DNA of 64,000 bases. Source: Clostridia bacterium. Lineage in GTDB: Bacteria; Bacillota; Clostridia; Oscillospirales; CAG-272. Within the stretch, counting starts at the first letter, position 1; each line of letters begins with the position of its first letter. Location: positions 37,556 to 101,555 of the forward strand of contig JAFVTH010000011.1 of assembly GCA_017503285.1 (NCBI GenBank). Direction: 5' to 3'. Both the position numbers and the translations under genes were made by a program. Shown piece by piece: positions 3,947 to 53,697 of this stretch. Under the pieces are notes generated by a model. That model made no database searches and was not told the origin of the DNA. It saw only the letters and a program-made list of their open reading frames with translations.

Positions 3947-3962
3947 AATCTCTAAAATACAC

Positions 3963-4009
3963 AAAAAACAGACACTCTCCCAAGGGAAAGCGTCTGTTTT
4001 CTTTTTTTT
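3963..4009. terminator. Bidirectional Rho-independent terminator (CAGACAC...GTCTG family)
   Basis: An A-run, a GC-containing hairpin (acagacac...gcgtctgt) and a T-run lie between the convergent ddh and hydrolase genes. Confidence 0.7.
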
Positions 4010-4010
4010 A

Positions 4011-4973
4011 TTAGTCGTTTAAGAAGTCAATAACCTGATTCCATATTTCCATATTTTGCTCAGTGATTTGGAACCAATCGTATTTGTCAATGTGGGGCTG
4101 ATGGGTCGCAGGGTCCTTAAAGTAGCCTGCGCGCTCAAGCCTTCTTGTGTCCTTGAAAAATGCTTTCTTGGCAGTAATGCCGGCAATAGAGTAGCTTGGG
4201 TTGTGGTCAGCGCCATTCGTTATAATAAACCTGATTCTTTCGTTGCCCTTAAGGGACTTCATCAGCTTTTTACAGTGGTGGTTGAACTTAACCGTTCTGT
4301 CGTCCTTTGATTGAACAATAAGGGCGCGCACATTGCTTTCGGCAAGGCTCTTGTCCGAGGAGCACTCAAAATATTTTGGATTAATTGCCTTTTCAAGAAA
4401 ATAAACCCTGCCACGGAAGGGTATTAAAAGGTTTTTCATGTGCTGCTTGATAATAGCTTTTATGGAAAGAAGCCCCGCAAAGGAAACCACCTTTTTTACA
4501 TCCGGATGGAAGCTGCAAATATTCATAGCCGAGTATCCGCCCCAGCTGTGTCCCACAATATAAAGCTCCCAGCCTGCAAGCTCCGGCATTTGCTTAAGCT
4601 GTGTCAGCGCGTCGTCAAGGTCGCGCAGAGCCTGTCCAAAGCCAAAGGTTGCAGCCCCCTCAGACTCCATACAACCGGTTTTGTCGTGGGCATAAACTAA
4701 AAAGCCTTGACTGGCAAGCAGCTCAATCTCTCTTAAGTAACCACGGTGGCCTGTCCACATGCCATGCTCAAAAATAACCAGCCTGCCGCTTTTTACCTTG
4801 TCCTCATAGTAGTAGAAATTGCCCTGTAAATTATGTCCCAATGAGGATTTAATTGTGATTTTGTGGCACATAAGCCCCGGAAAATCATCGCTGGTAAATA
4901 GAAAAATGTAGGGCTTACCGTCAAAGCGCTTAAAAATAGATTCAAGGTAAACCTTGTCAACAATATGTCCCAT
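4011..4973 (-). CDS. Alpha/beta-fold hydrolase (serine hydrolase, substrate unknown)
   Basis: 320 aa. It has the nucleophile elbow GHSWGG, a later SKDDRTV (Asp) and GADHN (His). No signal peptide. Confidence 0.7.
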   Translation of the reverse strand: MGHIVDKVYLESIFKRFDGKPYIFLFTSDDFPGLMCHKITIKSSLGHNLQGNFYYYEDKVKSGRLVIFEHGMWTGHRGYLREIELLASQGFLVYAHDKTGCMESEGAATFGFGQALRDLDDALTQLKQMPELAGWELYIVGHSWGGYSAMNICSFHPDVKKVVSFAGLLSIKAIIKQHMKNLLIPFRGRVYFLEKAINPKYFECSSDKSLAESNVRALIVQSKDDRTVKFNHHCKKLMKSLKGNERIRFIITNGADHNPSYSIAGITAKKAFFKDTRRLERAGYFKDPATHQPHIDKYDWFQITEQNMEIWNQVIDFLND

Positions 4974-4981
4974 TATATCTC

Positions 4982-5986
4982 CTAAATAAAAATTTCACAG
5001 TCGAAGGTATATCCGTCCTTAGTCTTGTTAATGCCGTACTGTGTCCTCTTTACTAAGTTAAACAGCTTGTCGCCATCTATACCAACTAAATTATCAACTG
5101 ATTCAATAAATCTTTCTGCCATTTCGTGAAAGCGGGTGGTGGTAACATAAATACCGCGGGTGCCGCCCTGCGCCACCATAGCGCCGTAAAACTCGCGCAC
5201 CTCTTTTTCGTTAATTTGAGCTCTGTCACGGTTTTTTGTCTGCACCTTGATTTTTTCTACAAAGCCAAAGTAGTCAACAACCTCAAGCACTACATCAATG
5301 CCACCGTCATCGCTACCGCCGGAAACATCGCAGTAAACAACCATCTGTCCGGAAAGGGAGTAATACTTTTCCAAAAGTCCTGCCATAAAGCTCTCAAAGA
5401 AAGCTCCGCCGCGTAGCCATAAATTTCTGAAGAATTTCGGCTTAAATTCATTTTCGGGCAGGGGAGTGTCGCATTTTGCCATATTATCTGCTTCACTTTT
5501 TAGTGTGTATTTGCCGTTTACAACGTCAATTTCTCCAATATCCACAAGGTTGAAAAGAATATTGCCGGCAATGGAACGCAGGGAAAAGTCGTCCTTTTGG
5601 GAAACGGTAGTGTCTGTACCAAAGTGACTTTCAAGATGGGAATAAATATCCTCCTTTGTGCGCACAGCACCCTCTAAAAAGGCAAGGATTTCAAGCTCAA
5701 CGCTGTCCTCGCGAACAATAACAAGCTCCTCCTTGGCAAGGGAATAAAGCTCTCCTACACGCTTAACAGCCTTCTTGTTCAGCAGGTCGTTTAGGGCAGT
5801 AGAAAGGTAGCTTTTTATAACACTGTATTTGCTTTTTGGAGATAAGTCGCCCTTTTCCTCTTCAGTAAGGCCGAAAAGGTCAATAGCCCCTTCAATAAGC
5901 TCATTTCTTGTGGCGCTTTGCTTTTTGGAAAGTGTTTCCACAATTTTAGAAACGGATTTTTTTCTTAGCTTGTTTGTAATTTTCAC
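4982..5986 (-). CDS. Mrr-like (type IV) restriction endonuclease domain protein with N-terminal winged-helix-like region
   Basis: The C-terminal half carries GGSDDGGIDVVLEV...KVQTKNR...GIYVTTTRF, a PD-(D/E)xK-like core. I place the start at the GTG at 5986, behind GGAAGGGTGGG. Confidence 0.55.
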   Translation of the reverse strand: MKITNKLRKKSVSKIVETLSKKQSATRNELIEGAIDLFGLTEEEKGDLSPKSKYSVIKSYLSTALNDLLNKKAVKRVGELYSLAKEELVIVREDSVELEILAFLEGAVRTKEDIYSHLESHFGTDTTVSQKDDFSLRSIAGNILFNLVDIGEIDVVNGKYTLKSEADNMAKCDTPLPENEFKPKFFRNLWLRGGAFFESFMAGLLEKYYSLSGQMVVYCDVSGGSDDGGIDVVLEVVDYFGFVEKIKVQTKNRDRAQINEKEVREFYGAMVAQGGTRGIYVTTTRFHEMAERFIESVDNLVGIDGDKLFNLVKRTQYGINKTKDGYTFDCEIFI

Positions 5987-6191: not shown

Positions 6192-7358
6192 GTGAAAATG
6201 AAGAAAGCTTTAATGGTTTTTATTGTATTATCCCTGTTTTTGCTGCTTGGTCTATGCTCCTGCGGCAAGTCATATATAGGCGAGGAGTATTTAGAGTATT
6301 TACCTGTGGGTGATGGTAGTGAATTTGGCGTTAGGGTGGGGGAAGCAATAGCTCTTGATAAAATAGAAATTCCGCCATATCATAACGGCAAGCCTGTTAC
6401 TGTGATTTTGGAAAGTGCCTTCAAGGATGCGAGGGCAAGTGAAATAGTGATTCCTGACACAATTACAACCATCGAAACGGGTGCTTTTTATAACTGTAGA
6501 AACCTTTTGGCAATTCACATTCCTGCGTCAGTTAGTAAGATTGAAAATATGGCGTTTTTCAATATACTTATTACCTGTGAGGCTTTAACCGAGGGAGAAA
6601 ATTGGGGCTATAACTGGGAAAATAATTGTAGTGTACTCTATGATGTTCAATCATCTGGAATAGAAAATGACTTTTTCTGGGTGAAAAGCTATTCAACAGG
6701 GGAAATAGAGCTTATTCTATACGTGGGAAACGAACAACCAAGTAATATTGTTAAGGTTCCATCAAGCATTCAAGGAACAAGCATTACAGAGGTTAACCTT
6801 TATAACCTGGGCATACCAAAAGAGGCTGTTGTTTATTTGCCAAAGGAGCTGACGGATGTTAGCTTTGATGGTGCTACCTTTGAGATTGTGCTTTGTGAAG
6901 CGCCAAGCGGCGAATTAGATTACTACAAAGGCGCGATTGTTTGGGATGCCAAAATGGACGGTGAAAATGGTTTTGATGGTGGGCTTTACTGGGCAGAGCT
7001 TAATAATGGTGGGGTGGCAGTGCTTGATAGCTTAGTAGGCGCAAGACAAATAAATATTCCGGAGCAGATTAACGGCAGAGACGTGACAGTAATAGCTGAA
7101 AACGGCTTTGCAAATAATGAGTATATTACAGAAGTTATTATCCCAAAAACCGTACGTAAAATAGGAACCAATGCATTTAGCTCTTGTTCAGCTTTAGTAA
7201 GTGTTTATATACCATCCTCTGTTGAAGTAATTGAACGCTTTGCATTTTATGATTCTCCCAACCTAACAATTTACTGTGAGGCAACAAAAAAGCAGGACGG
7301 CTGGTACTACCTTTGGAAGGCAAGATCCATTGATGTTGTTTGGGGCTACAAATATTAA
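6192..7358 (+). CDS. BspA-type leucine-rich-repeat lipoprotein
   Basis: Signal peptide plus lipobox (LLGLCSCG). Repeats of the form IP.SV..IE..AF..C..L..I.IP (for example IGTNAFSSCSALVSVYIPSSVEVIERFAFYDSPNL). Confidence 0.75.
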   Translation: MKMKKALMVFIVLSLFLLLGLCSCGKSYIGEEYLEYLPVGDGSEFGVRVGEAIALDKIEIPPYHNGKPVTVILESAFKDARASEIVIPDTITTIETGAFYNCRNLLAIHIPASVSKIENMAFFNILITCEALTEGENWGYNWENNCSVLYDVQSSGIENDFFWVKSYSTGEIELILYVGNEQPSNIVKVPSSIQGTSITEVNLYNLGIPKEAVVYLPKELTDVSFDGATFEIVLCEAPSGELDYYKGAIVWDAKMDGENGFDGGLYWAELNNGGVAVLDSLVGARQINIPEQINGRDVTVIAENGFANNEYITEVIIPKTVRKIGTNAFSSCSALVSVYIPSSVEVIERFAFYDSPNLTIYCEATKKQDGWYYLWKARSIDVVWGYKY

Positions 7359-20310: not shown

Positions 20311-20669
20311 ATATTACACCCTTCCTCGGTTGTTTTCTGTTAGCATTTTAACACAACATAAAACTAAAGTCAATAAGACACAAAAAAATGAGCCAATAAA
20401 AAGTTGCTAAATTGTAAATTTTTTGTGATTTCTAAAAAAATATTATAACTAAAATTTGTCATGGGAAAGAGGCTCTTAGCTCCTGTGGTTATTGACACCA
20501 GCCCACTTTTCCAACATTATATATAAGGAATTGGTTTACCACTTTAATTTGTTAAACTGATAAAAGATGCTTGAAATTTATAATATTGTGTGTTAAAATA
20601 GTCCCGTATGTTTATCACTTTTATATAATCACACACGTATATAAGAAAAAAGAAAGGCAAAAATTACAC

Positions 20670-23600
20670 ATGAAAAACAAAGTCATTGTAAGGGTGACAT
20701 CGGTTGTCATCTCGCTAATTTTGGCGACAATTTTACTGCTTTCTGTAATCATTCCGTCACTTGGAAAGAGCTATGCATACGACGCTCAGTACATTAGGCA
20801 GTTTACTGATTCTCTTATCACTAACAGGAATCAGTATTTTGATAGCTCAGTTGTTTATGAGCTTCCATCCGGAGTAAAGGATACAGACGAGATATCTGTA
20901 ATTATCAGCCTGTCAAATCCTGCGCTTCTTGATGAATATAACGAAACAAATAAGGAAATGAGCTTTACTGAGTTTGCATTTTCAGAAAGGGCAAATCAGG
21001 TTAGGGCAGAAATCGCCTCTGAAAAGGAGCAAATTTTAGCTACCTTTAAGGAGCAGGGCATTGAGGTAAAAACCGGTGCTGACTATTCTGCTATCCTAAC
21101 AGGCTTTGAGGTTATTATCAAGGCTGGGGACTTTAAGACAATGTCTATGTCCCTTGACAAGGATGTTACCCCAATTGTTTGTGAGGTTTATAAAAAGGCT
21201 GAAACTCAGCTTGTTGAAAATAAGGTTAATGTTAACGAAACCGGTATTTTCAACAGCAAGGAGTATATTGAAAAGTATGGCTATGACGGTACAGGTATGG
21301 TTGTTGCCGTGCTTGACACAGGTCTTGACTATACACACTCCGCATTCTCTGTTAGCAACTTTACCGCTGACAAGACAAAGCTTGGCTTGACAAAGGCTAT
21401 GGTTGCGCAGCTTGTTGGCTCAACAAAGGCAAGCACCTTGCTTCCCGGCCTTACAGAGGACGACGTTTATGTAAATGAAAAGGTGCCATTCTCCTTTGAC
21501 TATGCAGACAGAGACCCGGACGTTTACTCACTACATAATAACCACGGTACTCACGTTTCCGGTGTTATTGTTGGTAAGGACGACACAATTACAGGCGTTG
21601 CGCCAAACGCACAGCTTGTTGCTATGAAAATCTTCTCCGACACTAAGGATTCTGCAATTGCCTCCTGGATTCTTTCCGCACTTGAGGACTGCGTAATTCT
21701 CGGCGTTGACGTAATTAATATGTCACTTGGTACTGCTTGTGGTTTTAGCCGTGAGAGTGACGAGGAAAAGATTTCCGGCGTATATGAAAAAATCCGTGCG
21801 CAGGGCATTAGCTTGGTGGTTGCTGCATCAAACAGCTTTACATCATCCTACGGCTCTGAAAAGAACGGTAACCTTGGTCTTACCTCAAATCCGGACACAG
21901 CTACCGTTGGCTCTCCGTCTACCTACGAGGGTGCGCTTTCCATCGCATCTATCAACGGTATTAAGACACCATACATTCTTTACAATGGCAAGATAGTTTA
22001 CTTTACTGAGTCCAGCGATAGCTCAGCAGAGGAAAGATACTTTGTTGACGGTCTTCTTAAGGAGGGCGTTAACGACATAGAAATTGAATACGTGCTTATT
22101 CCGGGCGTTGGCCGTGATGCCGAGTACACAGGCATCGACGTTAAGGGCAAAATCGCCTTGGTAAAGCGTGGAGATACAACCTTTGAGGAAAAGGCACAGG
22201 CTGCTGAAAAGGCAGGCGCACTCGGCGTTATCGTATACAACAACATTTCCGGTGATATCCGTATGAATGTTGGTACGGTTAAGATTCCTGTTTGCTCAAT
22301 TTCACAGGAGGACGGAGAGGTGCTTGCTGCCGCAAAGCGTGGCACAATCAAGATCAGCAGAGATCAAACCTCCGGTCCGTTTATGTCCGACTTCTCATCC
22401 TGGGGTCCATCTCCAAGCCTTGGCATTAAGCCTGAGCTTACAGCACACGGCGGAAACATTCTTTCTGCTATTACCGGTGGTGGCTATGACCGTCTTTCCG
22501 GTACATCAATGGCTTGTCCTAACACAGCCGGCGTTATTATTCTTCTTCGCCAGTATGTTATTGACAAGTTCCCGGAAATTAAAAACGACCCTGTAAAGGT
22601 TACAGCTCTTGTTAACCAGCTCCTTATGTCAACTGCCGATATTGTTTATAACAAAAACGGCTTGCCATACGCAGTCAGAAAGCAGGGTGCAGGTCTTGCA
22701 AACCTTGAAAGCGCAACTGAAACAAAGGCAATTATCCTTACATATAACAAGGACGGCTCCGTTATGGATAAGTCCAAGCTTGAAATTGGGGACGACGCAG
22801 AAAAGACTGGCGTTTATGAGCTTAATTTCTCCGTTTACAACTTCGGCACAGCCCCGGCGTCCTACATTCTTTCCACCTTCGCAATGACCGAGGGCGTTAG
22901 TGATGTCAGAACACACAAGGGCGAAACAACCGTTACCGAGGAGGGCTATCTCCTTGAGGGCGCAACCGTTTCCTTTACCGTTGAAAACGGCACACAAAAC
23001 GGGGACACCATTACAGTTGAGGCTGGCAAAACCGCAAAGATTAAGGTTACAATCACATTGAGCGACGAGGATAAAAAGTACCTTGACGAGTCCTTTGAAA
23101 ACGGTATGTATATTGAGGGCTTTGTAGAGCTTGATGCAACAGGCGATACAAAGGAAGACCTTTCTGTTCCTTACCTTGCATTCTATGGCGACTGGACAGA
23201 GGCTCCAATCCTTGACCTTGATTATTTCGAGACAAACAAGGACGAGCTTAATGACTCTATCCCAACACTTGATAAGACTCTTCCGGATGCTTACGCAACA
23301 CGTCCGATCGGCGGTATGTTCAGCGACTACATTTCATACCTCGGCTCCTACTACTTCCAGCAAAACCCTGCAAATCAGATTATTTCTGCAAGCAGAGATT
23401 ATATTGCACTTTCCAACGTTTCTGTTTCTGACTACGCAACAGAGGCAGACCAGGATATTGCGACAATCCATAGCCTAAGATTTATTTGGACAGGTATGCT
23501 TCGTAACGCGGAAAAGGTTGTTGTTACAATTACCGATGACGCAACGGGCGAGGTTATACACGAGGTTGTTGATGACGATGTTCGTAAGTCCTATGGCGAC

Positions 23601-26600
23601 GGTGGCTCATATCTTTACCCTGCAAATGTAGAGGTTGAGTTTGATGTGGCAGAGCATAACCTAAAGAATAACACCAAGTACACAGTAAGGCTTGTGGCTT
23701 ATATGGACTACGGCAACGGTGGACTTGAAACAAATGAAAAGAATGTGTTTGAATTCCCATTCACCACAGACTTTGAGGCTCCTGCTGTAACAGACTGCAC
23801 ATTCCGTTCAGAATACGATAGCGATAAGGACAGAATGAGACTGTTTGCATCCTTGGCTGTTTACGACAACCACTACGCAATGAGCATGCAGCCCGGTTAT
23901 ATCAAATCAACAGTTGATGAAAATAACCAAATGTCATACGAGCTTATACCGTTTGAGAGCTATATGACTCCAATTTACTCTGTAAGAAACGGCACAACCT
24001 ATGTTGAATACGAGCTTACAGATTACATTTATGACCTAAAGAACAGCGCCCACGCAAAGAACTCCTTTGTTGTCAGCGTTTATGACTATGCACTTAACCA
24101 CGCAACCTACGAAATCGGCTTGCCGGATGAGTTTGTTGACTTCTTCTTCGACCTCGGCACTGACGAGGAGGGCAATCCGAATACAGGCATTACCCTTAGC
24201 CCTAATGAGCTTTACACAATGAAGCTTAGCGTTTATCCAAACGAGGAGGAGAACGAAAAGTGGGGCGAGCTTCTTGTATTCACATCCTCTGACGAGAGGG
24301 TTGTTAAGATTGTAAATAACAAGCTGGTTGCTTTGAAGCAGGGTAGGGCAACCATTGAGGCTAAGCACCCCAACGACCCAACCAAGAAGGCGTATATGAC
24401 AGTAAATGTCCTTGGGGAAAACGACGAGGGCTTCCAATACTTTGATAAGCCTGTTGCAGAGGTATTTGCAATAAAGGGCTACAAAACCTTGTTTGCCTTT
24501 GATATTATGGATAGCAACGACAAGGATATTGGCGAAACCGGTATAACAAAATTCTTCGGCGCAACCGAGGCACATTCTGTTAAGATGTTCCCATCTGAGT
24601 CAATTCAGCTTCTGTATAGCCTAAAGGCATACTTCCCTGACGATACCGAGATAGTATTTGCAACGGGTAATGACAAGGTTGTTTCCGTTGACCAAAACGG
24701 TGTTATTACAGCAAACGAAGAGGGCTTTTCTAACATTACAATCAGCCTAAAGCTTGATGGCTCATCTACCTTCTACACAGAAACACTTAGCGTAGAGGTT
24801 AAGGATCCGTTTGTAAGAACAGCACCAACCCTTACACACTACTATGGAAACGGTGGTCTTGTTGAAATTCCTGCTGACCTTCTTCTTACTAAAATCGGCG
24901 CATTTGCATTCTCAAATTATGAGTGGGTGCCAAAGACCGAGGCTGAGTATTTAGAGGACGACAGCAGCAGAACAAAGCAAAGCCCAATCGGCAACGATAC
25001 AATTACAAAGATTATTATTCCTGAGGGAATTAAGACAATTGATGCATACGCATTTGCAAGGCTCACAGCCCTTAAGGAGGTTGTGCTTCCTTCCACAATC
25101 GAGAACATCGAATACGGCGCATTTGCAGGCTGTACAAAGCTTGAAAAGGTAACCGGCATTGAGAATGTTCAGCTCATTAACTACGGCGCATTTGAGGGCT
25201 GTAACCTTAAGGGTACATTAAAGCTTGACAAGGCTTGCGCTATTGGTGACTTCTGCTTTGCATCTAACCCTAACCTTGAAAAGGTTGAAATGTCAGACAA
25301 GCTTCAATCCATCGGCGCATCCGCCTTTGCATACTGTCGTAAGCTTACCACAGTAAGCATCGGCGCAGAGAAGGCTAAGCTTGGTACATACGTGTTCTCA
25401 GACTGCTCATCACTAACCACCGTAAAGGCTAACGCAAGCGTTATTCCTGAGGGTGCGTTTATGAACTGCTCCAGCCTTGAGAATTTGACAATCGGTAAGG
25501 ACGTTGGCTACATTGGCGAGCTTGCGTTTGCAGGAACAAAAATCAGCCAGTTTAAGCTTGATAGCGCAAACACAGTATATAAGGTAAGCGCTGACGGTAA
25601 GTATCTCCTTACTAAGGACGGCAAAACACTTCTTCTTGCTGCTCCAACCGAAAGGGGTAGCATTGTAGTTTCCGATGCAAGCATTACAGCAATCGGAAAC
25701 GGTGCATTTGCAAGCAACAAAAATATAACATCTATCAAGGCAACCGGCGTTACAATGGTTAAGGACTATGCCTTCTATGGCTGTTCAGCTCTTACAAGCG
25801 TAACACTTGGCAAGCTTAGTGAAATTGGTAGCTATGCGTTCTACAACACAGCAATTTCCACCTTGCCGGCACTTGACGGACTTGATAAGATTGGCGAAAA
25901 CGCATTTGCATATACAGACCTTACAGTGGTAACAATTCCAAACGGTATGGTTGTCGGAAACGGCGCATTCTACGAGTGCGATAAGCTCCACACGGTTGTA
26001 ATTGGCGACGACGTTGTAATTGGCGATGGCGCATTTATGACAAGCTGGTCAAACAAGGTACCGGTTTATATCAAGGATGATAATTACACAACAAAGGTTT
26101 ACTATCCACATATCCCATCTGCACTTAAGAGCCTGACAATCGGTAAAAATGCAGTAATCGGCGATAGCGCATTCTATGGCTCAAGTGAGCTTAAGGCAGT
26201 TACACTTGATAGCGGTGCAAAAATTGGCAGAATGGCATTCTATAACTGCTATAAGCTTGAAAGCATTGAACTTGAAAACGTAATTACTGTTGGGGAATAC
26301 GCATTCTCCGGTGATGAATATCAAACCGCATCATCTGCTGAGGGCGCCGGCATCGGTGTTGACGAAAAGGGCTACAGCGTTAGCCACATTTACGCAACAA
26401 AGCTTAGTCACATTGCATTTGAAAGGCTTGAGAGCCTTGGCGCATATGCCTTTGCTCTTTGTCCGGAGCTAATTGATGTTCTAATGAGTCAGGATTGCAC
26501 GCTTACAGAAATTCCGGAAAGAGCATTTGCAAAGTGCTACAAGCTAAGCGGCATCAATCTTTCCGAATCTGTTACAAGAATCGGTCTTGAATCATTTGGA

Positions 26601-27995
26601 GAAACAGCTGTACAGCTTGTTTGTCTACCAAGCAATATTGAGTATATAGACAACTACGCATTTGCAGGCTGTACAAAGCTTGAAGAAATCTCACTTGGTG
26701 TAAACGGCACCGACCTTGGCGAGGGTGTATTTGCATACTGCGAAAAGCTTTCAACAGTTACAAATCTTGAAAAGGTTAAGAAAATCGGCGCATATGCCTT
26801 TGCCCTTACAGATTTAAGGGGTGCAAAGCTTTCATCTGCTGTGGAAATCGGCAATGAGGCGTTTATGAAGGAAACAATGACCGACTTCGACCTTGACCTT
26901 GGCGAAAACAAGGTTCTTTCAGTAATCGGCGACAACCCATTTGCACTTTGCAGAATTGACGCCCTTTACATTACAGAAACAATGGAGTTTAACGGTAAAG
27001 AATATCCTGTTATCGTTTACGACTTTGATATTAGTGAAACAGTTCATGTAATTAACGGTTCAATCTATGCCGACGTTCCAAACGGACTTGAGCTTATTAC
27101 CTACGCAAGCGTAGATGATAGCTTTGTTGAGGTTGCGGACGGCACAGTTAGAATCACAGCATACGCCTTTGCCGGTCACGACATTGTTAGGGTTAAGCTC
27201 CCATACACCGTTAACGCAATCGGCCACAAGGCATTCTATGATTGTGATGAGCTAATCACCGTTATCTTTAATAGCTACACAGCACCTACCCTTGAGGAGG
27301 AGTTCGACCAAAGCTACTTTACCGTATTCAATATTCCTGCAAGCTCAGGCGACACAGCAGGCTACGAGTATTACGATGAAGAGGGCAACTTGAAAACAAC
27401 TCCGGGCCTTGGCGTTGTACCATACTTTATGTTCAACCCAATGGTTTACACTACACAGGGCATTTATCCGCAATCCGCAAACTACTACTCAATGTACTAT
27501 GGTGGTAACTTTGTAAACATGATAGGCCACGGCAACCCGGAGCTTATTATGATTAGACCATCAAACGGTCAGGAGTATGATTCATTCATTATGGGTCAGT
27601 ACTTTACAACCGTAATTGATGGCTCAGTTGCACCGGACAAGATTACAATTGCTGCAATTGAGGCAATTGACAGGCTACCGGATAAGGTTATGCTTTCCGA
27701 CAAGCCTTTAGTTGTTGCAGCACGCTTGGCATATGACAAGATTGCAACACTTGAGCAGCAGGCGCTTGTTACTAACTATGGCGAGCTTCTTACTGCCGAG
27801 CAGAGAATTAAGGCGTTTGAGTCAGGCGACAATCAAGAGCCGGAGATTGAGGAGCCGATTGCTGATACAACAGTTGACCCGCTGATGGTTGTTGTGATTG
27901 TTGAGTCAGTTCTTCTCGGTATAGGCATAATCGGCGCAGGTGTGCTTGCCTTTATTAAGAGAAAGGCTATTGTAAGATTATTTACAAGAAAGTAA
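20670..27995 (+). CDS. Giant membrane-anchored subtilisin-like (S8) cell-envelope protease with PA insert, Big_2-like domains and a ~800-aa BspA-type LRR region
   Basis: Catalytic triad: VAVLDTG (Asp codon 21315), HGTHVSG (His codon 21543) and GTSMACP (Ser codon 22506). PA-like insert GKIALVKRGDTTFEEKAQAAEKAGALGVIVYNN. The LRR units span roughly 24830-27250. C-terminal TM helix plus KRK. The ATG at 20670 gives an N-terminal signal anchor. Confidence 0.9.
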   Translation: MKNKVIVRVTSVVISLILATILLLSVIIPSLGKSYAYDAQYIRQFTDSLITNRNQYFDSSVVYELPSGVKDTDEISVIISLSNPALLDEYNETNKEMSFTEFAFSERANQVRAEIASEKEQILATFKEQGIEVKTGADYSAILTGFEVIIKAGDFKTMSMSLDKDVTPIVCEVYKKAETQLVENKVNVNETGIFNSKEYIEKYGYDGTGMVVAVLDTGLDYTHSAFSVSNFTADKTKLGLTKAMVAQLVGSTKASTLLPGLTEDDVYVNEKVPFSFDYADRDPDVYSLHNNHGTHVSGVIVGKDDTITGVAPNAQLVAMKIFSDTKDSAIASWILSALEDCVILGVDVINMSLGTACGFSRESDEEKISGVYEKIRAQGISLVVAASNSFTSSYGSEKNGNLGLTSNPDTATVGSPSTYEGALSIASINGIKTPYILYNGKIVYFTESSDSSAEERYFVDGLLKEGVNDIEIEYVLIPGVGRDAEYTGIDVKGKIALVKRGDTTFEEKAQAAEKAGALGVIVYNNISGDIRMNVGTVKIPVCSISQEDGEVLAAAKRGTIKISRDQTSGPFMSDFSSWGPSPSLGIKPELTAHGGNILSAITGGGYDRLSGTSMACPNTAGVIILLRQYVIDKFPEIKNDPVKVTALVNQLLMSTADIVYNKNGLPYAVRKQGAGLANLESATETKAIILTYNKDGSVMDKSKLEIGDDAEKTGVYELNFSVYNFGTAPASYILSTFAMTEGVSDVRTHKGETTVTEEGYLLEGATVSFTVENGTQNGDTITVEAGKTAKIKVTITLSDEDKKYLDESFENGMYIEGFVELDATGDTKEDLSVPYLAFYGDWTEAPILDLDYFETNKDELNDSIPTLDKTLPDAYATRPIGGMFSDYISYLGSYYFQQNPANQIISASRDYIALSNVSVSDYATEADQDIATIHSLRFIWTGMLRNAEKVVVTITDDATGEVIHEVVDDDVRKSYGDGGSYLYPANVEVEFDVAEHNLKNNTKYTVRLVAYMDYGNGGLETNEKNVFEFPFTTDFEAPAVTDCTFRSEYDSDKDRMRLFASLAVYDNHYAMSMQPGYIKSTVDENNQMSYELIPFESYMTPIYSVRNGTTYVEYELTDYIYDLKNSAHAKNSFVVSVYDYALNHATYEIGLPDEFVDFFFDLGTDEEGNPNTGITLSPNELYTMKLSVYPNEEENEKWGELLVFTSSDERVVKIVNNKLVALKQGRATIEAKHPNDPTKKAYMTVNVLGENDEGFQYFDKPVAEVFAIKGYKTLFAFDIMDSNDKDIGETGITKFFGATEAHSVKMFPSESIQLLYSLKAYFPDDTEIVFATGNDKVVSVDQNGVITANEEGFSNITISLKLDGSSTFYTETLSVEVKDPFVRTAPTLTHYYGNGGLVEIPADLLLTKIGAFAFSNYEWVPKTEAEYLEDDSSRTKQSPIGNDTITKIIIPEGIKTIDAYAFARLTALKEVVLPSTIENIEYGAFAGCTKLEKVTGIENVQLINYGAFEGCNLKGTLKLDKACAIGDFCFASNPNLEKVEMSDKLQSIGASAFAYCRKLTTVSIGAEKAKLGTYVFSDCSSLTTVKANASVIPEGAFMNCSSLENLTIGKDVGYIGELAFAGTKISQFKLDSANTVYKVSADGKYLLTKDGKTLLLAAPTERGSIVVSDASITAIGNGAFASNKNITSIKATGVTMVKDYAFYGCSALTSVTLGKLSEIGSYAFYNTAISTLPALDGLDKIGENAFAYTDLTVVTIPNGMVVGNGAFYECDKLHTVVIGDDVVIGDGAFMTSWSNKVPVYIKDDNYTTKVYYPHIPSALKSLTIGKNAVIGDSAFYGSSELKAVTLDSGAKIGRMAFYNCYKLESIELENVITVGEYAFSGDEYQTASSAEGAGIGVDEKGYSVSHIYATKLSHIAFERLESLGAYAFALCPELIDVLMSQDCTLTEIPERAFAKCYKLSGINLSESVTRIGLESFGETAVQLVCLPSNIEYIDNYAFAGCTKLEEISLGVNGTDLGEGVFAYCEKLSTVTNLEKVKKIGAYAFALTDLRGAKLSSAVEIGNEAFMKETMTDFDLDLGENKVLSVIGDNPFALCRIDALYITETMEFNGKEYPVIVYDFDISETVHVINGSIYADVPNGLELITYASVDDSFVEVADGTVRITAYAFAGHDIVRVKLPYTVNAIGHKAFYDCDELITVIFNSYTAPTLEEEFDQSYFTVFNIPASSGDTAGYEYYDEEGNLKTTPGLGVVPYFMFNPMVYTTQGIYPQSANYYSMYYGGNFVNMIGHGNPELIMIRPSNGQEYDSFIMGQYFTTVIDGSVAPDKITIAAIEAIDRLPDKVMLSDKPLVVAARLAYDKIATLEQQALVTNYGELLTAEQRIKAFESGDNQEPEIEEPIADTTVDPLMVVVIVESVLLGIGIIGAGVLAFIKRKAIVRLFTRK

Positions 27996-37505: not shown

Positions 37506-37536
37506 CAAAAAGAGGCAAGAGATGCCTCTTTTTTCA
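37506..37536. terminator. Bidirectional terminator downstream of trmO
   Basis: The sequence aaaaagaggcaagagatgcctctttttt. Confidence 0.7.
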
Positions 37537-38205
37537 TTCAATGCTAATTACAAAAAGCTCCTTGCCCTCAACCTTAAACTTTACCTCGAAATTTTCAAAG
37601 GGAAACCCAAAAACGCGGGAGGGCGTGTCTATATAAGAGGGTCTTGGGTCTTGACTAAGTGCTTCCTTAAGACAAAGGAGCTGGCATTCTGTCAGCTTAT
37701 GACAAAGCTCTTTTGGTATGTTTACATTTAGTATGTAATCATCAAGTGAGGCAGAAAAGCCACCGCTTGCGTTTTCTATGCTTTCAAACTGTGGTAAATA
37801 TGGCTTTATATCGTAAACAGGAGTCCCGTCCATCATATCAGCGCCGCTTAGATGCAAAACATATCCCTGGTTTTCCGTTTTTTCAATGGCATCAAGCTTC
37901 AAAAGAGAAAGCCCCAGACTATTTGGTCTAAAGGGAGAGCGAGAGGCAAAAACCCCCACACGGGTGTTGCCACCCAGTCTTGGCGGACGTACAGTCGGAG
38001 AAAACTCCTTGTATTCTGCCTTGTTAAAGCCCCAAATTACCCAAATGTGGGAAAATTCCTCAAGCCCGCGCAAGGCCTCCTTTACCCTGTATTCCGGAGA
38101 AAAAACAAGTGTAGCTAGGCTGCTTTTTACAGTTCCGCTTTGCCTTGGTACACCAAACTTTGTCTTAAATTGTGTCCTTAAATGCCCAATTTCCTTAATT
38201 TCCAT
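37534..38205 (-). CDS. trmO: tRNA (m6t6A37) methyltransferase TrmO/TsaA family (YaeB-like)
   Basis: The N-terminus IGHLRTQFKTKFGVPRQSG and FSHIWVIW...RPPRLGGN..GVFASRSPFRPN are typical of the UPF0066/TsaA fold. Confidence 0.8.
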   Translation of the reverse strand: MEIKEIGHLRTQFKTKFGVPRQSGTVKSSLATLVFSPEYRVKEALRGLEEFSHIWVIWGFNKAEYKEFSPTVRPPRLGGNTRVGVFASRSPFRPNSLGLSLLKLDAIEKTENQGYVLHLSGADMMDGTPVYDIKPYLPQFESIENASGGFSASLDDYILNVNIPKELCHKLTECQLLCLKEALSQDPRPSYIDTPSRVFGFPFENFEVKFKVEGKELFVISIE

Positions 38206-38224
38206 TTTTACCTCTTATAATAAG

Positions 38225-39484
38225 CTAAGACTGTTGCTTCTTCATAGGTCCGGGTAGCTTTATTTCAAAATCCACCGCACCGTCGTTTGCCTTAGGTGGG
38301 GGCATCTTTTTTTCGTCAAGCACGGTTGCAGGCTTAATAGAGCCCTTGCCGTAGGTGTTTTTTATCTCGTCAACAACGGAAAAAAGCTTCTTTTTCTTTT
38401 CTGCCTTGTCGTAGTCGTAAAATAAATCTCTTTGCTGGGGTAGGTCCTCGTCAATTAGGTCAATGGCAGTAATTGTTATAGCCCTGACCTTGCTTTCCCA
38501 ATTATAAATTTCCTTAAAAAGGCTAAAACCGGCTTTTGCTAAGCTGACCTCGTCCTGCACAGGCTTTGGTAGCCTTGCTTGCGCAGAAGCCGAGCTTAAA
38601 AACTCGTTCTTTACAGTGATGGCAACGCCACGGGCGCAAAGCCCCTCCTTTCGCAGCTTGTAGCCAACATCAATAGCCAAGGAAACAATAACCTTTTCAG
38701 CCTCGTCATTGTTTACAAGGTTTTCCACACAGGTAATGCCGTGACCGATAGATTTAGGTGGAGCTTTTTCGTCCATGTGGGCAACAGGGGACATATCAAG
38801 CCCGTTTGCAAAATCCCAAAGCATACCGCCGTTTTTACCAAGACGCCTTTCTAAAAAGTCCCTTGGCACCTTAGCCAGCTGACCGATGGTTGTAACACCA
38901 ATCTCCTCAAGCCGCATAGTTGTTTGCCTGCCACAATAAAGCAAATCCGAGCAGGGGAGTGTCCAAATTTTCTCCTTAAAGTTGTCCTCGGTTATCTCGG
39001 TTATAGCATCTGGCTTTTTCAAGTCACTGCCTAATTTTGCAAAAACCTTGTTAAATGAAACACCTATGCTGACAGTAAGCCCAAGCTCGTCCTTTACACG
39101 CTGCCTTATCTTACTGGCAATCTCCATAGGGGACATAAGGCTGTCTGTAACATCAAGCCAGCACTCATCAAGCCCATAAGGCTCAATAAGGTCGGTGTAG
39201 TCCTCGTATATTTTGTGCAGTAGCCTTGAAAATTCCTTGTAGTATTCAAATCTCGGTGGCACAATAATAAGCTCGGGGCATTTTTTCTTAGCCTCCCAGT
39301 TTGGCATACCTGTTGTGATGCCCGCCTTTTTTGCAAGCTCACTTTTTGCCAAAACAATACCGTGCCTTTCCTCGGTAGAGCCACAAACAGCAACAGCCTT
39401 ATCTCTAAGCTCGGGATTTAACACTATTTCACAGGATGCGTAAAAGCAGTTTGCATCGCTATGTAAAATTGCACGCTTTTTCAT
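38225..39484 (-). CDS. dinB: Y-family DNA polymerase (Pol IV / UmuC-like)
   Basis: Motifs ILHSDANCFYASCE, GLDECWLDVT and SIGVSFNKVFAKL. 419 aa. Confidence 0.88.
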   Translation of the reverse strand: MKKRAILHSDANCFYASCEIVLNPELRDKAVAVCGSTEERHGIVLAKSELAKKAGITTGMPNWEAKKKCPELIIVPPRFEYYKEFSRLLHKIYEDYTDLIEPYGLDECWLDVTDSLMSPMEIASKIRQRVKDELGLTVSIGVSFNKVFAKLGSDLKKPDAITEITEDNFKEKIWTLPCSDLLYCGRQTTMRLEEIGVTTIGQLAKVPRDFLERRLGKNGGMLWDFANGLDMSPVAHMDEKAPPKSIGHGITCVENLVNNDEAEKVIVSLAIDVGYKLRKEGLCARGVAITVKNEFLSSASAQARLPKPVQDEVSLAKAGFSLFKEIYNWESKVRAITITAIDLIDEDLPQQRDLFYDYDKAEKKKKLFSVVDEIKNTYGKGSIKPATVLDEKKMPPPKANDGAVDFEIKLPGPMKKQQS

Positions 39485-39503
39485 AAAATCCCCCGTGGAG
39501 TGT

Positions 39504-39761
39504 CTAAATTTCCTCTTTTATTGAGAACCAGCTATTGGTGTAAGCCTCAAAATAAATCTTTTTTTCTACCCCCTCAACCAGCACCGAATATTCAATCGGA
39601 GCAACGCAGGTCACAACCCTGGGGCAGTAGCTTCTTGTGTCTAAAACCTTGGTTATCTCAAAGGCTTTGTCCTTGTAAATTATGCGCCTTGGGCGCAATT
39701 TGCCATTTTTCAGAAAGCGAGCATCTACCTCTAAATTGACTCTTATAAAATGCTCTGCCAT
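39504..39761 (-). CDS. 85-aa hypothetical protein between the LexA-family repressor and the Y-family polymerase
   Basis: Intact ORF with tight spacing: 7 nt after the repressor stop and 19 nt before the polymerase start. I recognise no motif. Confidence 0.5.
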   Translation of the reverse strand: MAEHFIRVNLEVDARFLKNGKLRPRRIIYKDKAFEITKVLDTRSYCPRVVTCVAPIEYSVLVEGVEKKIYFEAYTNSWFSIKEEI

Positions 39762-39768
39762 TTTAACC

Positions 39769-40368
39769 TCAAAGGGACTTTATTACCTTTGTTGCAACGC
39801 CCTGTATAAGACAGCTTGAAACGATAATATCGTCCATCTCCTCGTTTTCGGGGTGCAAAACAATTCTCTTGTTTTCAGGCTCCGGATAGTAGCGCTTTAG
39901 TGTGCTTTGACCATCGGCAAGAGCAACAACAATATCCCCGCGCCTTGCGTAGTCCTGCTTTCTTATAATAACCATATCTCCGTCGTCAATGCCTGCGTCA
40001 ATCATGGAATTTCCGTCAGCAGTAAGGATAAAAAAGCTTCCCTTACCAACAAAGGACTTAGGCAATCTAACATAGCCGTCAATATATTCCTCACGGTCAT
40101 CAAGCGGTCCACAGGGGATAGTGCCTATCTTAGCCACGGAAACCATTTCGCGCTCGGTCTTTGAGATGTAAGGCGTTTCAAAGCCAAGGTCGCTTTTTGT
40201 TATAATGCCGGCACGCTCCATAGCGTCAAGATATCTCTGCACCGTGCTTTTTGAAACACCTGTGCTTGCGGAAATCTCACGGACAGATGGAGAAGAATTA
40301 TATGTATCAAAATAGTTTTCAATACATTGCTTAATAGAAATAATAATATCAACCTTTACGTTTGCCAT
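39769..40368 (-). CDS. LexA-family (S24 peptidase) autocleavable repressor
   Basis: ATG at 40368 behind AAGGAAGG. N-terminal wHTH (VSKSTVQRYLDAMERAGII). Predicted cleavage site IPCGP, Ser in DGNSM, Lys in STLKRY. Confidence 0.85.
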   Translation of the reverse strand: MANVKVDIIISIKQCIENYFDTYNSSPSVREISASTGVSKSTVQRYLDAMERAGIITKSDLGFETPYISKTEREMVSVAKIGTIPCGPLDDREEYIDGYVRLPKSFVGKGSFFILTADGNSMIDAGIDDGDMVIIRKQDYARRGDIVVALADGQSTLKRYYPEPENKRIVLHPENEEMDDIIVSSCLIQGVATKVIKSL

Positions 40369-40458
40369 AATAAATACCTTCCTTTTTTCAAAGCAGAGTA
40401 GCCATAAAACGCTTAATTCTGCTTCGGTGTAAATTTGTGTCCCACCTTGTGCGCACAT

Positions 40459-40540
40459 TGGGACACTTTGTCCCATTTATTATAGCACCCTAAAAAGCCC
40501 TTGTCAATAGAATTTCATAAAAAAAGGGACAAACTGTCCC
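40459..40540 (-). promoter_or_regulatory. Sigma-A-type promoter bracketed by two GGGACA-N3-TGTCCC operators
   Basis: On the minus strand: TTGACA (40507..40502), a 17-nt spacer, then TATAAT (40484..40479). Palindromes: TGGGACACTTTGTCCCA at 40459..40475, just downstream of the -10, and GGGACAAACTGTCCC at 40526..40540, upstream of the -35. Confidence 0.65.
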
Positions 40541-40704
40541 AAAACTAAAACAAAAGAGGTCAAAAGCTCCTGCTTTTGCTGATTTTTTGCGCCTTATCCT
40601 ATATAATTAATGAAGGATTTTATGCGATAGCCTACCTTTTTCTTGACAAAAAATATGCTGGGTGCTAATATATAATAGTATAAAGAAAAAACGAGGTTTA
40701 TAAA

Positions 40705-41454
40705 ATGCCAAGATTTTTTATAAGAAAAGAGCAAATTGAAATAAAGGAAAACGAAAAGCTAATCCACATAGTAGGCGAGGATGCCCACCATATAGCAAGG
40801 GCACTTCGTATGGCTGTTGGCGAGGGTGTTGAAATATGCGATATGCAAAAAAACCTTTACATGTGTACGCTTTTGGAGTTTTTTGACGATAAAGAGGTGC
40901 TTGCCAGGGTGGATAGCGAGGTTAAGTGCGACACCGAGCCGGAAAACGAAATCGTTTTATATCAAGCCCTTGCCAAGGGCGAAAAAATGGAGATTATTAT
41001 CCAAAAGGCTGTGGAGTGTGGTGCAACAAAAATTGTGCCCTTTAAGTCCGAGCGCTGTATTGCCAAGCTGGATAAAAAGGACGAGCCAAAGAAAATTGAA
41101 CGCTGGCAAAAAATTGCTGAGGCAGGGGCTAAGCAAAGCGGCAGAGGTATAATTCCGCAGGTCTTTCCGGCTTTGACATTTGACCAAATGATAGATGAGG
41201 CAAAAAAATGCAGCCTGCCACTTTTCTGCTACGAGGCAGAGGACGGCTCAACGATAAAGAGCGCACTAAGGGGTGCAGAGGACAAATCCACCATTGCCAT
41301 AATTATAGGCAGTGAGGGTGGCTTTAGCGTTACAGAGGCTAATAAAATAAAGGACGCAGGCATAAGAAGCGTGGGTCTTGGCAAAAGAATATTAAGGTGT
41401 GAAACCGCATCTGCCTTCGCTCTTGCGTGCATTGTGTACGAAAACGAGCTGTGA
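40705..41454 (+). CDS. rsmE: 16S rRNA (uracil1498-N3)-methyltransferase
   Basis: MPRFFI...GEDAHHIARALRM at the N-terminus and a C-terminal IIGSEGGFS SPOUT motif. Confidence 0.85.
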   Translation: MPRFFIRKEQIEIKENEKLIHIVGEDAHHIARALRMAVGEGVEICDMQKNLYMCTLLEFFDDKEVLARVDSEVKCDTEPENEIVLYQALAKGEKMEIIIQKAVECGATKIVPFKSERCIAKLDKKDEPKKIERWQKIAEAGAKQSGRGIIPQVFPALTFDQMIDEAKKCSLPLFCYEAEDGSTIKSALRGAEDKSTIAIIIGSEGGFSVTEANKIKDAGIRSVGLGKRILRCETASAFALACIVYENEL

Positions 41455-52905: not shown

Positions 52906-53697
52906 TTATTTCTTTCTTTCCCAGTATAGCACTCCGTCGTCAAAATCCATGCAGGAAAGCATTTTTGCGTTCTTTTGTGGGCTACTAAGGTCAAGCTTGT
53001 ATTCCTTTTCGTTATAGCTACAGTAGCTGACCCAGCCCAAGGGCTTTTCAAAGGTAACGGATTTTAGATTTGCGCAGCCACGAAAGGCAAGGGACTCTAT
53101 CCTTGTTATGTTTTTCGGTATAACAATATCTATAAGTCCGTCGCAATTTTCAAATGCATCCTCCTCAATGGTTGTGGCATTTTCTTTTAATGGTAAGTGG
53201 GTAAGACTGTTACAGCCACTAAATGATCCTTGGCTAATTGTGGAGCAGGGGGTAATTTCCTTTAAGGAAACACAGTCAGAAAAAACGCAGGAATAAAGAA
53301 ACGGGTCCCCATGCATAACCACCTTAGAAAGGGCGGTACAGCCATTAAAGGCGCTCCAGCCGATAGATGAAAAGCATTCTGGAACAGTTATTTCAGTAAG
53401 AGATGTACAGCCCCAAAAGGCATAGTCCTCAATCCTTGGCAGCTCCTCTTCCAAATCAGCAAACGCTTTTTGTATAATATACTCCTCATCGCTTGCAAAT
53501 CTGCTGCTATAATCAGGGAGCGTAACAGATTTTAGCGCCTTGCAGTCCTTAAATGCGCTTTCTCCAATGGATTTTACAAAAATGCCGTCAATAGAGCTAG
53601 GGATAACAACCACCTCAGCATCCTTTTCACAATCAATAACATTATAAGCCCCGTCAACAAGTGAAAGCGTCAGCTTGCCATATTTTATCTCATCCAT
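52906..53697 (-). CDS. BspA-type leucine-rich-repeat protein without signal peptide
   Basis: 263 aa. Repeats such as SIGESAFKDCKALKSVTLP, AFWGCTSLTEITVP and LAFRGCANLKSVTF. The N-terminus MDEIKYGKLTL is not hydrophobic. Confidence 0.7.
   Translation of the reverse strand: MDEIKYGKLTLSLVDGAYNVIDCEKDAEVVVIPSSIDGIFVKSIGESAFKDCKALKSVTLPDYSSRFASDEEYIIQKAFADLEEELPRIEDYAFWGCTSLTEITVPECFSSIGWSAFNGCTALSKVVMHGDPFLYSCVFSDCVSLKEITPCSTISQGSFSGCNSLTHLPLKENATTIEEDAFENCDGLIDIVIPKNITRIESLAFRGCANLKSVTFEKPLGWVSYCSYNEKEYKLDLSSPQKNAKMLSCMDFDDGVLYWERKK

Follow-up and report, generated by a model that had tools for sequence, protein, structure and literature searches.

Promoter, palindromes and the encoded repressor

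The locus described here lies in a 64-kb stretch of contig JAFVTH010000011.1 from a Clostridia bacterium (the window, by which the whole stretch analysed is meant), where a gene for a LexA-family repressor is followed by genes for an 85-aa protein (orf85) and for a Y-family translesion polymerase (polY). Two copies of the palindrome GGGACA-N3-TGTCCC flank the promoter of the first gene. From the conservation of these palindromes, and from the way in which they co-vary with the recognition helix of the LexA-like protein, the locus is proposed to be an autoregulated, DNA-damage-inducible translesion-synthesis cassette, a reading to which a probability of roughly 0.7 was given. Coordinates are those of the window, and the promoter, the palindromes and the cassette genes are all on the minus strand. 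The features of the promoter region and of the first gene are the following:

40526..40540, minus strand: distal operator GGGACAGTTTGTCCC, an exact match, with a run of seven T after it and its centre at about -60 from the predicted start
40502..40507, minus strand: -35 hexamer TTGACA, with a 17-nt spacer after it, part of the 12/12 promoter match
40479..40487, minus strand: extended -10, made of TG (40487-40486), one base and TATAAT (40484-40479)
40459..40475, minus strand: proximal operator TGGGACAAAGTGTCCCA, an exact match that overlaps the predicted start at ~40472
40449..40456, minus strand: palindrome GTGCGCAC in the 5' leader, seen in the sequence
40438..40444, minus strand: lone TGGGACA half-site in the 5' leader
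40377..40384, minus strand: ribosome-binding site AAGGAAGG, read from the sequence, 8 nt before the ATG at 40368
39769..40368, minus strand: LexA-family repressor of 199 aa, with a winged helix-turn-helix (wHTH; recognition helix SKSTVQRY) and an S24 domain; C86-G87, Ser121 and Lys158

The promoter TTGACA-17-TATAAT with its extended -10 reached a score of 12/12 and was the top match within positions 38000-41000. It was found between two exact copies of GGGACA-N3-TGTCCC, which confirmed the arrangement put forward in the original prediction. As the proximal palindrome begins 3-4 nt past the -10, it covers the expected transcription start at ~40472. Both exact matches of the window (n = 2) are at this promoter, against 0.01 expected from shuffles, and none of 100 shuffles of the window gave two; when up to two mismatches were allowed, no site beyond these two was detected in the 64 kb. 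The heptamer TGGGACA was not enriched in the window (8 seen vs. 6 expected), with four of the eight inside this 104 bp. The extra half-site at 40438-40444 and the palindrome GTGCGCAC, both noticed earlier, were indeed present, and neither was kept in the orthologous loci L001-L003 and L006-L009 described below; the half-site is possibly a weak auxiliary site. The absence of a Firmicute Cheo box (GAAC-N4-GTTC) upstream of the gene was also verified, as none was detected in the 300 bp upstream even at one mismatch, and the single copy in the window (51617) sits within the coding sequence of a DUF4886 protein.

The ATG at 40368 was used as the start codon, the 199-aa product matching both the start used by the orthologues and an identical NCBI protein (MBR2444201.1, named 'repressor LexA', from an uncultured Clostridia bacterium metagenome-assembled genome, MAG). 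A longer open reading frame (ORF) of 235 aa, called mechanically from an ATG at 40476, was discarded; its start falls between the -10 and the predicted transcription start at ~40472.

The assignment of this product to the LexA family held, since it passed the TIGR00498 LexA equivalog model (120.5 bits vs. a cut-off of 110.95, residues 14-197) and has both the wHTH and the S24 peptidase domain (PF00717, 86.6 bits). The LexA_DNA_bind model PF01726 scored 19.3, under its cut-off of 23.7, and the top PDB relative was the Thermotoga maritima LexA 3k2z (E 3.6e-25, alignment from residue 15). The motif PSVREI is common to the protein and the Bacillus subtilis LexA, and Ser121 and Lys158 correspond in the alignment to the catalytic pair of the LexA proteins from B. 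subtilis and Escherichia coli. At the cleavage position the alignment placed C86-G87 ('IPCGP'), where Ala-Gly is found in the LexA of T. maritima, B. subtilis and E. coli, so that the UmuD-like autocleavage site expected for this protein was found as described. The UmuD model NF007621, with a cut-off of 110 bits, reached just 66, and the S24 domain comes after a full wHTH. The Cys-Gly pair was kept, together with the Ser and the Lys, in 80/80 relatives; therefore, it marks a separate subfamily as a whole and is not peculiar to the gene of the window. In a neighbour-joining tree the Cys-Gly subfamily formed a clade apart from the B. subtilis LexA.

Operator conservation and the recognition helix

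The relatives were obtained by a one-genome-per-species scan, which yielded 80 loci encoding relatives of the LexA-like protein (L numbers). Loci L001-L009 are orthologues, with 56-85% protein identity, and L005 ends at the gene, without upstream DNA. The proximal palindrome was present in 8/8 orthologous loci whose upstream DNA is intact (L001-L004 and L006-L009), five times exactly and three times with one mismatch. When anchored on the palindrome, the orthologous promoters aligned without gaps in the order TTGACA, 17 nt, TATAAT or TATACT, 4 nt and palindrome, while the rest of the intergenic DNA (spacer and leader) had diverged. The TTGACA was unchanged in 9/9 orthologous promoters at a fixed offset from the operator. 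When one mismatch was allowed, the 300 bp in front of the gene contained the motif in all nine clade members (the window, L001-L004 and L006-L009), and outside this clade only in L015, which has the KSTVQRY helix too. In the neighbour-joining tree the GGGACA-operator group was monophyletic, and in six conspecific metagenome contigs the proximal and the distal sites were both identical. Judged by this conservation in the same register, the palindromes are a genuine conserved cis-element at this promoter, which bears out the proposal that they form its operator.

The distal site was limited to the species of the window and L001, where it has one mismatch and the same centre-to-centre distance of 66 bp; it was absent from the other orthologues. 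L004 has a half-site within the spacer and two TGTCCC half-sites in the leader, being the sole orthologue with comparable leader half-sites. At the place of the distal operator, upstream of the -35, L002 (~5855-5880) and L003 (~685-710) have other palindromes (CCTGTAC-N8-GTACAGG and GCTGTAC-N8-GTACAGC), which are followed by an A-run and adjoin the start of a divergent gene.

Across the 80 relatives, the palindrome that usually lies directly past the -10 changed together with the recognition-helix segment of the encoded protein:

helix S/P-KSTVQRY: palindrome TGGGACA-N3-TGTCCCA
helix GKSTVQRY (L015): palindrome TGGGACACCTAGTCCCA
helix S/P-RSTVQRY: palindrome ATGGGC-N-TTATGTCCCA
helix PRPTVQRY: palindrome TGAGAC-N5-GTCTCA
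helix PRSTVPRY: palindrome TGAGACAAATGTCTCA
helix PKSTVGRY: palindrome TGGGA-N7-TCCCA
helix ARGTAYKY: palindrome GGAAGCA-N3/4-TGCTTCC
helix SKATxSRY: palindrome TGAAACA-N2-TGTTTCA (Cheo-like)

This co-variation argues for autoregulation, that is, for the binding of each encoded protein to its own promoter, since a shared external regulator would not yield such a pattern; it thus supports, by comparison of sequences, the proposal that the LexA-like protein would be the reader of its own operator. The Arg of SKSTVQRY is presumably at the position that matches the base-contacting Glu45 in the structure of the E. coli LexA bound to DNA, and it may be speculated that it reads the extra G of the operator.

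Among the S/P-RSTVQRY relatives (L037, L041, L047, L049, L055, L058, L059, L063 and L064) the site was asymmetric, ATGGGC(N)TTATGTCCCA, and lay 6-8 nt past the TATAAT. In it the GTCCCA half-site is kept, whereas the left arm is degenerate and the spacing is reduced by one base.

The canonical Firmicute LexA, which has the Cheo box CGAACRNRYGTTYC, is built like the window protein, with a wHTH, an S24 domain, the Ser/Lys dyad and the motif PSVREI, and it too has a palindromic operator over its own promoter. The two differ in the cleavage bond (Ala-Gly vs. Cys-Gly), in the recognition helix (SSSTVHGH in B. subtilis LexA vs. SKSTVQRY) and in the operator, which is GGGAC-N5-GTCCC instead of GAAC-N4-GTTC, with the half-site GGGACA vs. 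CGAACA and the arms one base further apart. The operator had been called non-canonical, and this stands in so far as it differs from the Firmicute Cheo box; however, by its sequence it is a recognisable derivative of that box, and not an unrelated element.

The proposed translesion-synthesis cassette

The genes downstream of the repressor are the following:

39504..39761, minus strand: 85-aa all-beta protein (orf85), a candidate standalone ImuB-C-type polymerase accessory factor
38225..39484, minus strand: Y-family (DinB/YqjH-like) translesion polymerase of 419 aa, with IMS, IMS_HHH_1 and IMS_C domains
37534..38205, minus strand: trmO (tRNA methyltransferase O), with the Pfam domains TrmO_N and TrmO_C, 19 nt downstream of polY

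The first three genes are tightly packed, with gaps of 7 nt (lexA-like/orf85) and 19 nt (orf85/polY), in keeping with the operon originally predicted for them. At least 18 loci, L001-L009 among them and spread over several clades of the tree, have the order lexA-like/orf85/polY, and the pair lexA-like/orf85 was present in two more. The polymerase matched PF00817 (E 7.6e-45), PF11799 (E 3.8e-18) and PF21999; as every Pol IV and UmuC NCBIfam model scored under its cut-off, no subfamily was assigned to it, and its NCBI name is 'DNA polymerase IV', that of orf85 being 'hypothetical protein'. The polymerase C-terminus contains …VDEIKNTYGKGSI… (read from the translation), which we take, partly by comparison with the N-terminus of RecA, to be a RecA-NT-like motif. 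The likeness is to the motif named RecA-NT by Timinskas & Venclovas (PMC6511836), and on this ground the tail is described here as putatively RecA-NT-like.

A structural model of orf85 built from 63 homologues reached a predicted local distance difference test (pLDDT) score of 96.3 and has six beta-strands; a first model from seven sequences (pLDDT 64), whose structure matches were meaningless, had been discarded. In these 63 sequences G20, P24 and W78 are invariant, and R43 and K67 are the majority residues. No match to orf85 was found in Pfam or NCBIfam, and no relative in the PDB by sequence-profile and structure searches. DUF6504 was touched by two of the 63 family members with a weak match (E 0.11), and a literature search for 'DUF6504' returned nothing. 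Two large profile searches with orf85 recovered only small stand-alone unannotated proteins, none of them fused to a polymerase. The relatives of orf85 adjoin IMS polymerases and LexA-like genes, as in the arrangements IMS/SRAP/orf85-family gene of Agathobaculum and IMS/orf85-family gene of Eggerthellaceae, and one distant member is on its own, its neighbourhood lacking a polymerase gene. Standalone ImuB-C proteins have been described as mainly beta, with a conserved C-terminal Trp and basic residues, in operons with DinB, LexA and SRAP (PMC3765255), and as lacking relatives in the PDB (PMC12926913). As the beta fold, the C-terminal Trp, the DinB, LexA and SRAP neighbours and the lack of PDB relatives fit that description, orf85 is probably a standalone ImuB-C, matched by gene context and published description.

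A YolD-like identity of orf85 was also considered and rejected, as it has no PF08863 match and the true YolD-like proteins of other loci look different. At L061, L079 and L073 the LexA-like gene heads a polymerase/small-protein pair in reversed order, in which the small protein (66-108 aa, with '…AAQFAPFAALTGY…') looks YolD-like by eye, so that translesion cassettes of more than one type seem to be headed by members of the subfamily.

According to the mechanism proposed for the cassette, a LexA-family dimer would bind GGGACA-N3-TGTCCC where it overlaps the transcription start in the consensus promoter of its own gene, with a second dimer binding 66 bp upstream in this species, and the bound repressor would hold the lexA-like/imuB-C-like/polY operon shut. 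Upon DNA damage, RecA filaments would stimulate self-cleavage at Cys86-Gly87 through the Ser121/Lys158 dyad, and the release of the repressor would allow the polymerase and the small accessory protein to be made, with the RecA-NT-like tail of the polymerase probably serving to dock it on RecA. Compared to a standard LexA, cleavage may be slowed by the Cys-Gly bond, in such a way that the error-prone polymerase would be switched on late. In this mechanism the binding, the RecA-dependent cleavage, its kinetics and the private regulon are inferred.

Cassettes of a comparable kind are known. LexA2 of Pseudomonas putida and Xanthomonas reportedly heads a lexA2-imuA-imuB-dnaE2 cassette. This LexA2 is a second LexA that mainly controls its own cassette, and its coexistence with a primary LexA is proven there. 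Like the protein described here, it has its own operator and is encoded by the first gene of a mutagenesis cassette, whereas the proteins encoded with it are ImuA, a catalytically dead ImuB and DnaE2 instead of an active polymerase and a small beta protein. In the LexA1/LexA2 operons of Geobacter sulfurreducens the order of the genes is that of the window, a LexA-family repressor being encoded ahead of a small ImuB-C-type protein and, last, an active Y-family polymerase. They belong to another phylum and have another operator, the Geobacter LexA motif being GGTT-N2-C-N4-G-N3-ACC. As summarised in PMC6511836, the Geobacter lexA-imuB-C-polY operon is induced by damage and forms one transcription unit; the same paper describes ImuB-C as coupled to YqjH-type polymerases in Clostridia, 'often' with lexA, and further precedent for operons of this type was published in PMC3765255.

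Among other S24 proteins, UmuD shares with the window protein the fold, the Cys-Gly self-cleavage and the genetic coupling to a Y-family polymerase, in contrast to which it is a subunit of the E. coli Pol V and no repressor, without a DNA-binding domain, while the window protein has a full wHTH. UmuDAb of Acinetobacter and HdiR of streptococci repress error-prone polymerase genes through inverted repeats of their own. Both differ from the window protein in the N-terminal DNA-binding domain (of XRE type in HdiR and derived from UmuD in UmuDAb) and in the operator. The Cys-Gly bond is that of UmuD, and LexA, HdiR and UmuDAb have been grouped as SOS-like S24 regulators with RecA-mediated self-cleavage (PMC8565304).

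The existence of lexA-imuB-C-polY operons and of LexA proteins dedicated to a cassette as a kind is therefore already described. On sequence comparison, what is new here is the operator, its fixed promoter geometry, the Clostridial Cys-Gly subfamily and its helix-operator co-variation; among the papers searched, none was found that ties LexA to GGGACA-N3-TGTCCC. Current understanding is not overturned by these data. The locus provides a clean operator for a Cys-Gly LexA subfamily that is apparently widespread in gut and rumen Clostridia, and a concrete conserved case of the little-studied pairing of PolY with ImuB-C-like proteins in this class. The joint change of helix and operator is a natural data set for the drift of LexA specificity after duplication, an open theme of SOS evolution (PMC8565304).

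The gene that follows the cassette, trmO, is present at that position in L001-L005 and not in L006-L009, and no terminator-like site was predicted on the minus strand between polY and trmO, which is possibly a read-through passenger outside the conserved cassette. The surroundings in the window are those of an ordinary chromosome, with genes for pyruvate formate-lyase, diaminopimelate dehydrogenase, rsmE, greA, lysS, opp transporter components and glycosidases. A very long ORF (2474 aa) occupies 20571-27995 on the plus strand, and BspA-type leucine-rich-repeat proteins are encoded at 6192-7358 and 52906-53697.

Cassette-specific repressor, sole LexA and other readings

Most likely, the protein belongs to the Clostridial Cys-Gly LexA subfamily with diversified operators and is dedicated to its cassette, and it is not the master SOS repressor; weighed directly, the dedicated role was taken as probable and that of a sole LexA as improbable. 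This matters for annotation, as the gene carries the name 'repressor LexA': if it is a cassette-specific paralogue, SOS regulons predicted from Cheo boxes would be wrong here, and the polymerase would be missed as damage-inducible.

Several observations weigh against the proposed cassette repressor. The evidence consists of sequence features, conservation and helix-operator co-variation, and the organism is known as an uncultured MAG. The protein passes the cut-off of the LexA equivalog and is named accordingly by NCBI, and its gene occupies a stable housekeeping locus between rsmE and trmO, with synteny in the window and L001-L005 and no obvious mobile element, so that it could be the only LexA of the organism. 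Both palindromes fit a terminator-like pattern, the distal one weakly. Finally, the 17-mer TGGGACANNNTGTCCCA is found in contexts without a LexA-like gene, and the palindrome alone is thus not diagnostic.

The explanation that survives best among the alternatives, although still an unlikely one, is that an uncultured Clostridia lineage has this protein as its sole LexA and that GGGACA-N3-TGTCCC is its diverged SOS box for recA, uvr and other genes, in which case the palindrome would be a new LexA-binding motif and no private operator. Besides the equivalog match and the stable locus, the monophyly of the GGGACA-operator clade and a motif that is one base change plus one spacer base away from the Cheo box are in line with it. 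In an established model, a primary LexA is displaced by a duplicate that has diverged, and the turnover of LexA motifs is accepted to come about when a gene is duplicated and its motif then diverges (PMC8565304). The DNA read covered ~80 kb of this species and ~85 kb around the orthologous loci, and neither a further GGGACA-N3-TGTCCC nor a good Cheo box was detected in it, in a sample too small to decide; because no classical SOS gene is present in that DNA, the missing second site is weak evidence against a sole LexA. No second S24 or lexA gene was detected in the annotated part of the window or in any of the loci fetched. The window was extended by ~6 kb on its left (radical-SAM activase, helicase and AAA ATPase) and by ~10 kb on its right (rmuC, rbfA, nrnA, truB, comEC and a WYL regulator), and neither recA, uvr, lexA, the GGGACA motif nor a good Cheo box was detected in these extensions.

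More evidence came from the subfamily itself, which is often accessory. Some MAGs contain it twice. A relative with 47% identity is encoded on a Lactiplantibacillus plasmid, inside an exopolysaccharide (EPS) cluster, and other members were found in phage-labelled contigs or next to genes that resemble those for ParB, primase and ImmA, the copies of four Lachnospiraceae species being identical. The Bacillus LexA is just 35% identical to the window protein. The separation of the clade, the plasmid, phage and mobile-element settings and the occurrence of two copies per MAG lean, if indirectly, towards a dedicated or accessory repressor.

Two wider propositions, taken jointly, were regarded as rather unlikely: that the protein is the sole LexA of its lineage with an unreported SOS motif (17 LexA-binding motifs were counted in a 2021 review), or that the Clostridial Cys-Gly proteins would be a large and rapidly diversifying family of mutually orthogonal RecA-sensing repressors, with a helix-to-operator code for each cassette (translesion polymerases, mobile-element modules, the plasmid EPS cluster) and the Cys-Gly bond as a delay.

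Very improbable, in comparison, is that the palindromes act as nucleic-acid hairpins, the distal one with its T-run as a terminator or insulator and the proximal one as a 5'-terminal stem that would stabilise the mRNA. In addition to the terminator-like pattern, a fold was predicted for the 116-nt leader in which the operator forms a 5' hairpin of 7 bp (-32.4 kcal/mol for the leader, z-score -2.8). However, the minus strand upstream of the distal palindrome encodes no gene and rsmE diverges on the plus strand, so a terminator would not be needed there, and the stems are just 6-7 bp long (6 bp in the distal one) with 3-nt loops. In 12 sites no compensatory change was seen and 7/7 departures broke a pair on one side, the distal copy of L001 having a broken pair; the arms were conserved in sequence while the loop varied, and the arm sequence shifted with the recognition helix of the encoded protein. 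No match to an Rfam family was found. Selection has kept the sequence, and not the pairing, although a secondary role at the RNA level is conceivable.

Equally hard to sustain is the binding of another regulator, be it an unrelated factor that elsewhere reads TGGGACA-N3-TGTCCCA or the canonical LexA of the host, to which the palindromes would be degenerate Cheo boxes. In its favour, the half-site GGGACA is similar to CGAACA and the 17-mer TGGGACANNNTGTCCCA recurs in gut metagenome contigs without a LexA-like gene nearby, often inside a longer palindrome. Against it, the palindrome follows the recognition helix encoded by the adjacent gene in 80 loci, and the arm spacing (N5 vs. N4) and the altered core base set the operator apart from the Cheo consensus.

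The 17-mer was scanned for exact matches in metagenomes and at least 120 loci were recovered, most of them with a different, longer palindrome in other contexts; among the matches listed, no LexA, orf85 or PolY relative was detected, and they are uninformative about the lineage of the window. In the corresponding contigs (L090-L209, gut and environmental) it lay often within (A/C)CTTTGGGACAAnnTGTCCCAAAG(T/G), and sometimes occurred twice per contig or in tandem, 24-29 nt apart (e.g. L139, 1269 and 4561; L095, 9727 and 9756; L180, 2046 and 2070; also L109, L117, L142 and L195). This metagenome palindrome looks like a separate element with another binder, possibly linked to mobile DNA.

Other observations concern the neighbours and relatives of the LexA-like gene. 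The WYL regulator beyond the right end of the window (L216, 350-1357, ~9 kb past it) is a 335-aa WYL-domain protein near comEC and rmuC; in some bacteria, regulators of this type govern responses to DNA damage that do not depend on LexA. The plasmid-borne relative (L081, CP028228.1, from Lactiplantibacillus plantarum, 3797-4573) is annotated as 'LexA repressor' and lies among the exopolysaccharide genes rfbX, cap8A, ywqD/E and galE, an unexpected setting. In several Lachnospiraceae (L029-L032, L027, L042 and L069) the LexA-like gene is followed by genes for a 241-aa protein with a HEASHH metalloprotease motif (ImmA/IrrE-like) and for a Cys-rich zinc-ribbon protein of 82 aa. The aligned N-terminal segment does not differ among L029-L032, although these represent four species (Eubacterium, Lachnospira, Coprococcus), and a mobile module is suggested by this identity. 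Motif matches in L034, L038 and L054 were rejected as members of the regulon, as they fall inside the ParB-like coding sequence of a repeated mobile element: the sequence GGGACAAGTTGTCCC is found at L034 9517, L038 9480 and L054 7938, within the stretch that encodes '…TSGQVVPKS…'. This element also has primase-like and MobC-like genes and its own Cys-Gly LexA-like repressor with a different operator, and it is present in two copies in one MAG (RGIG1555).

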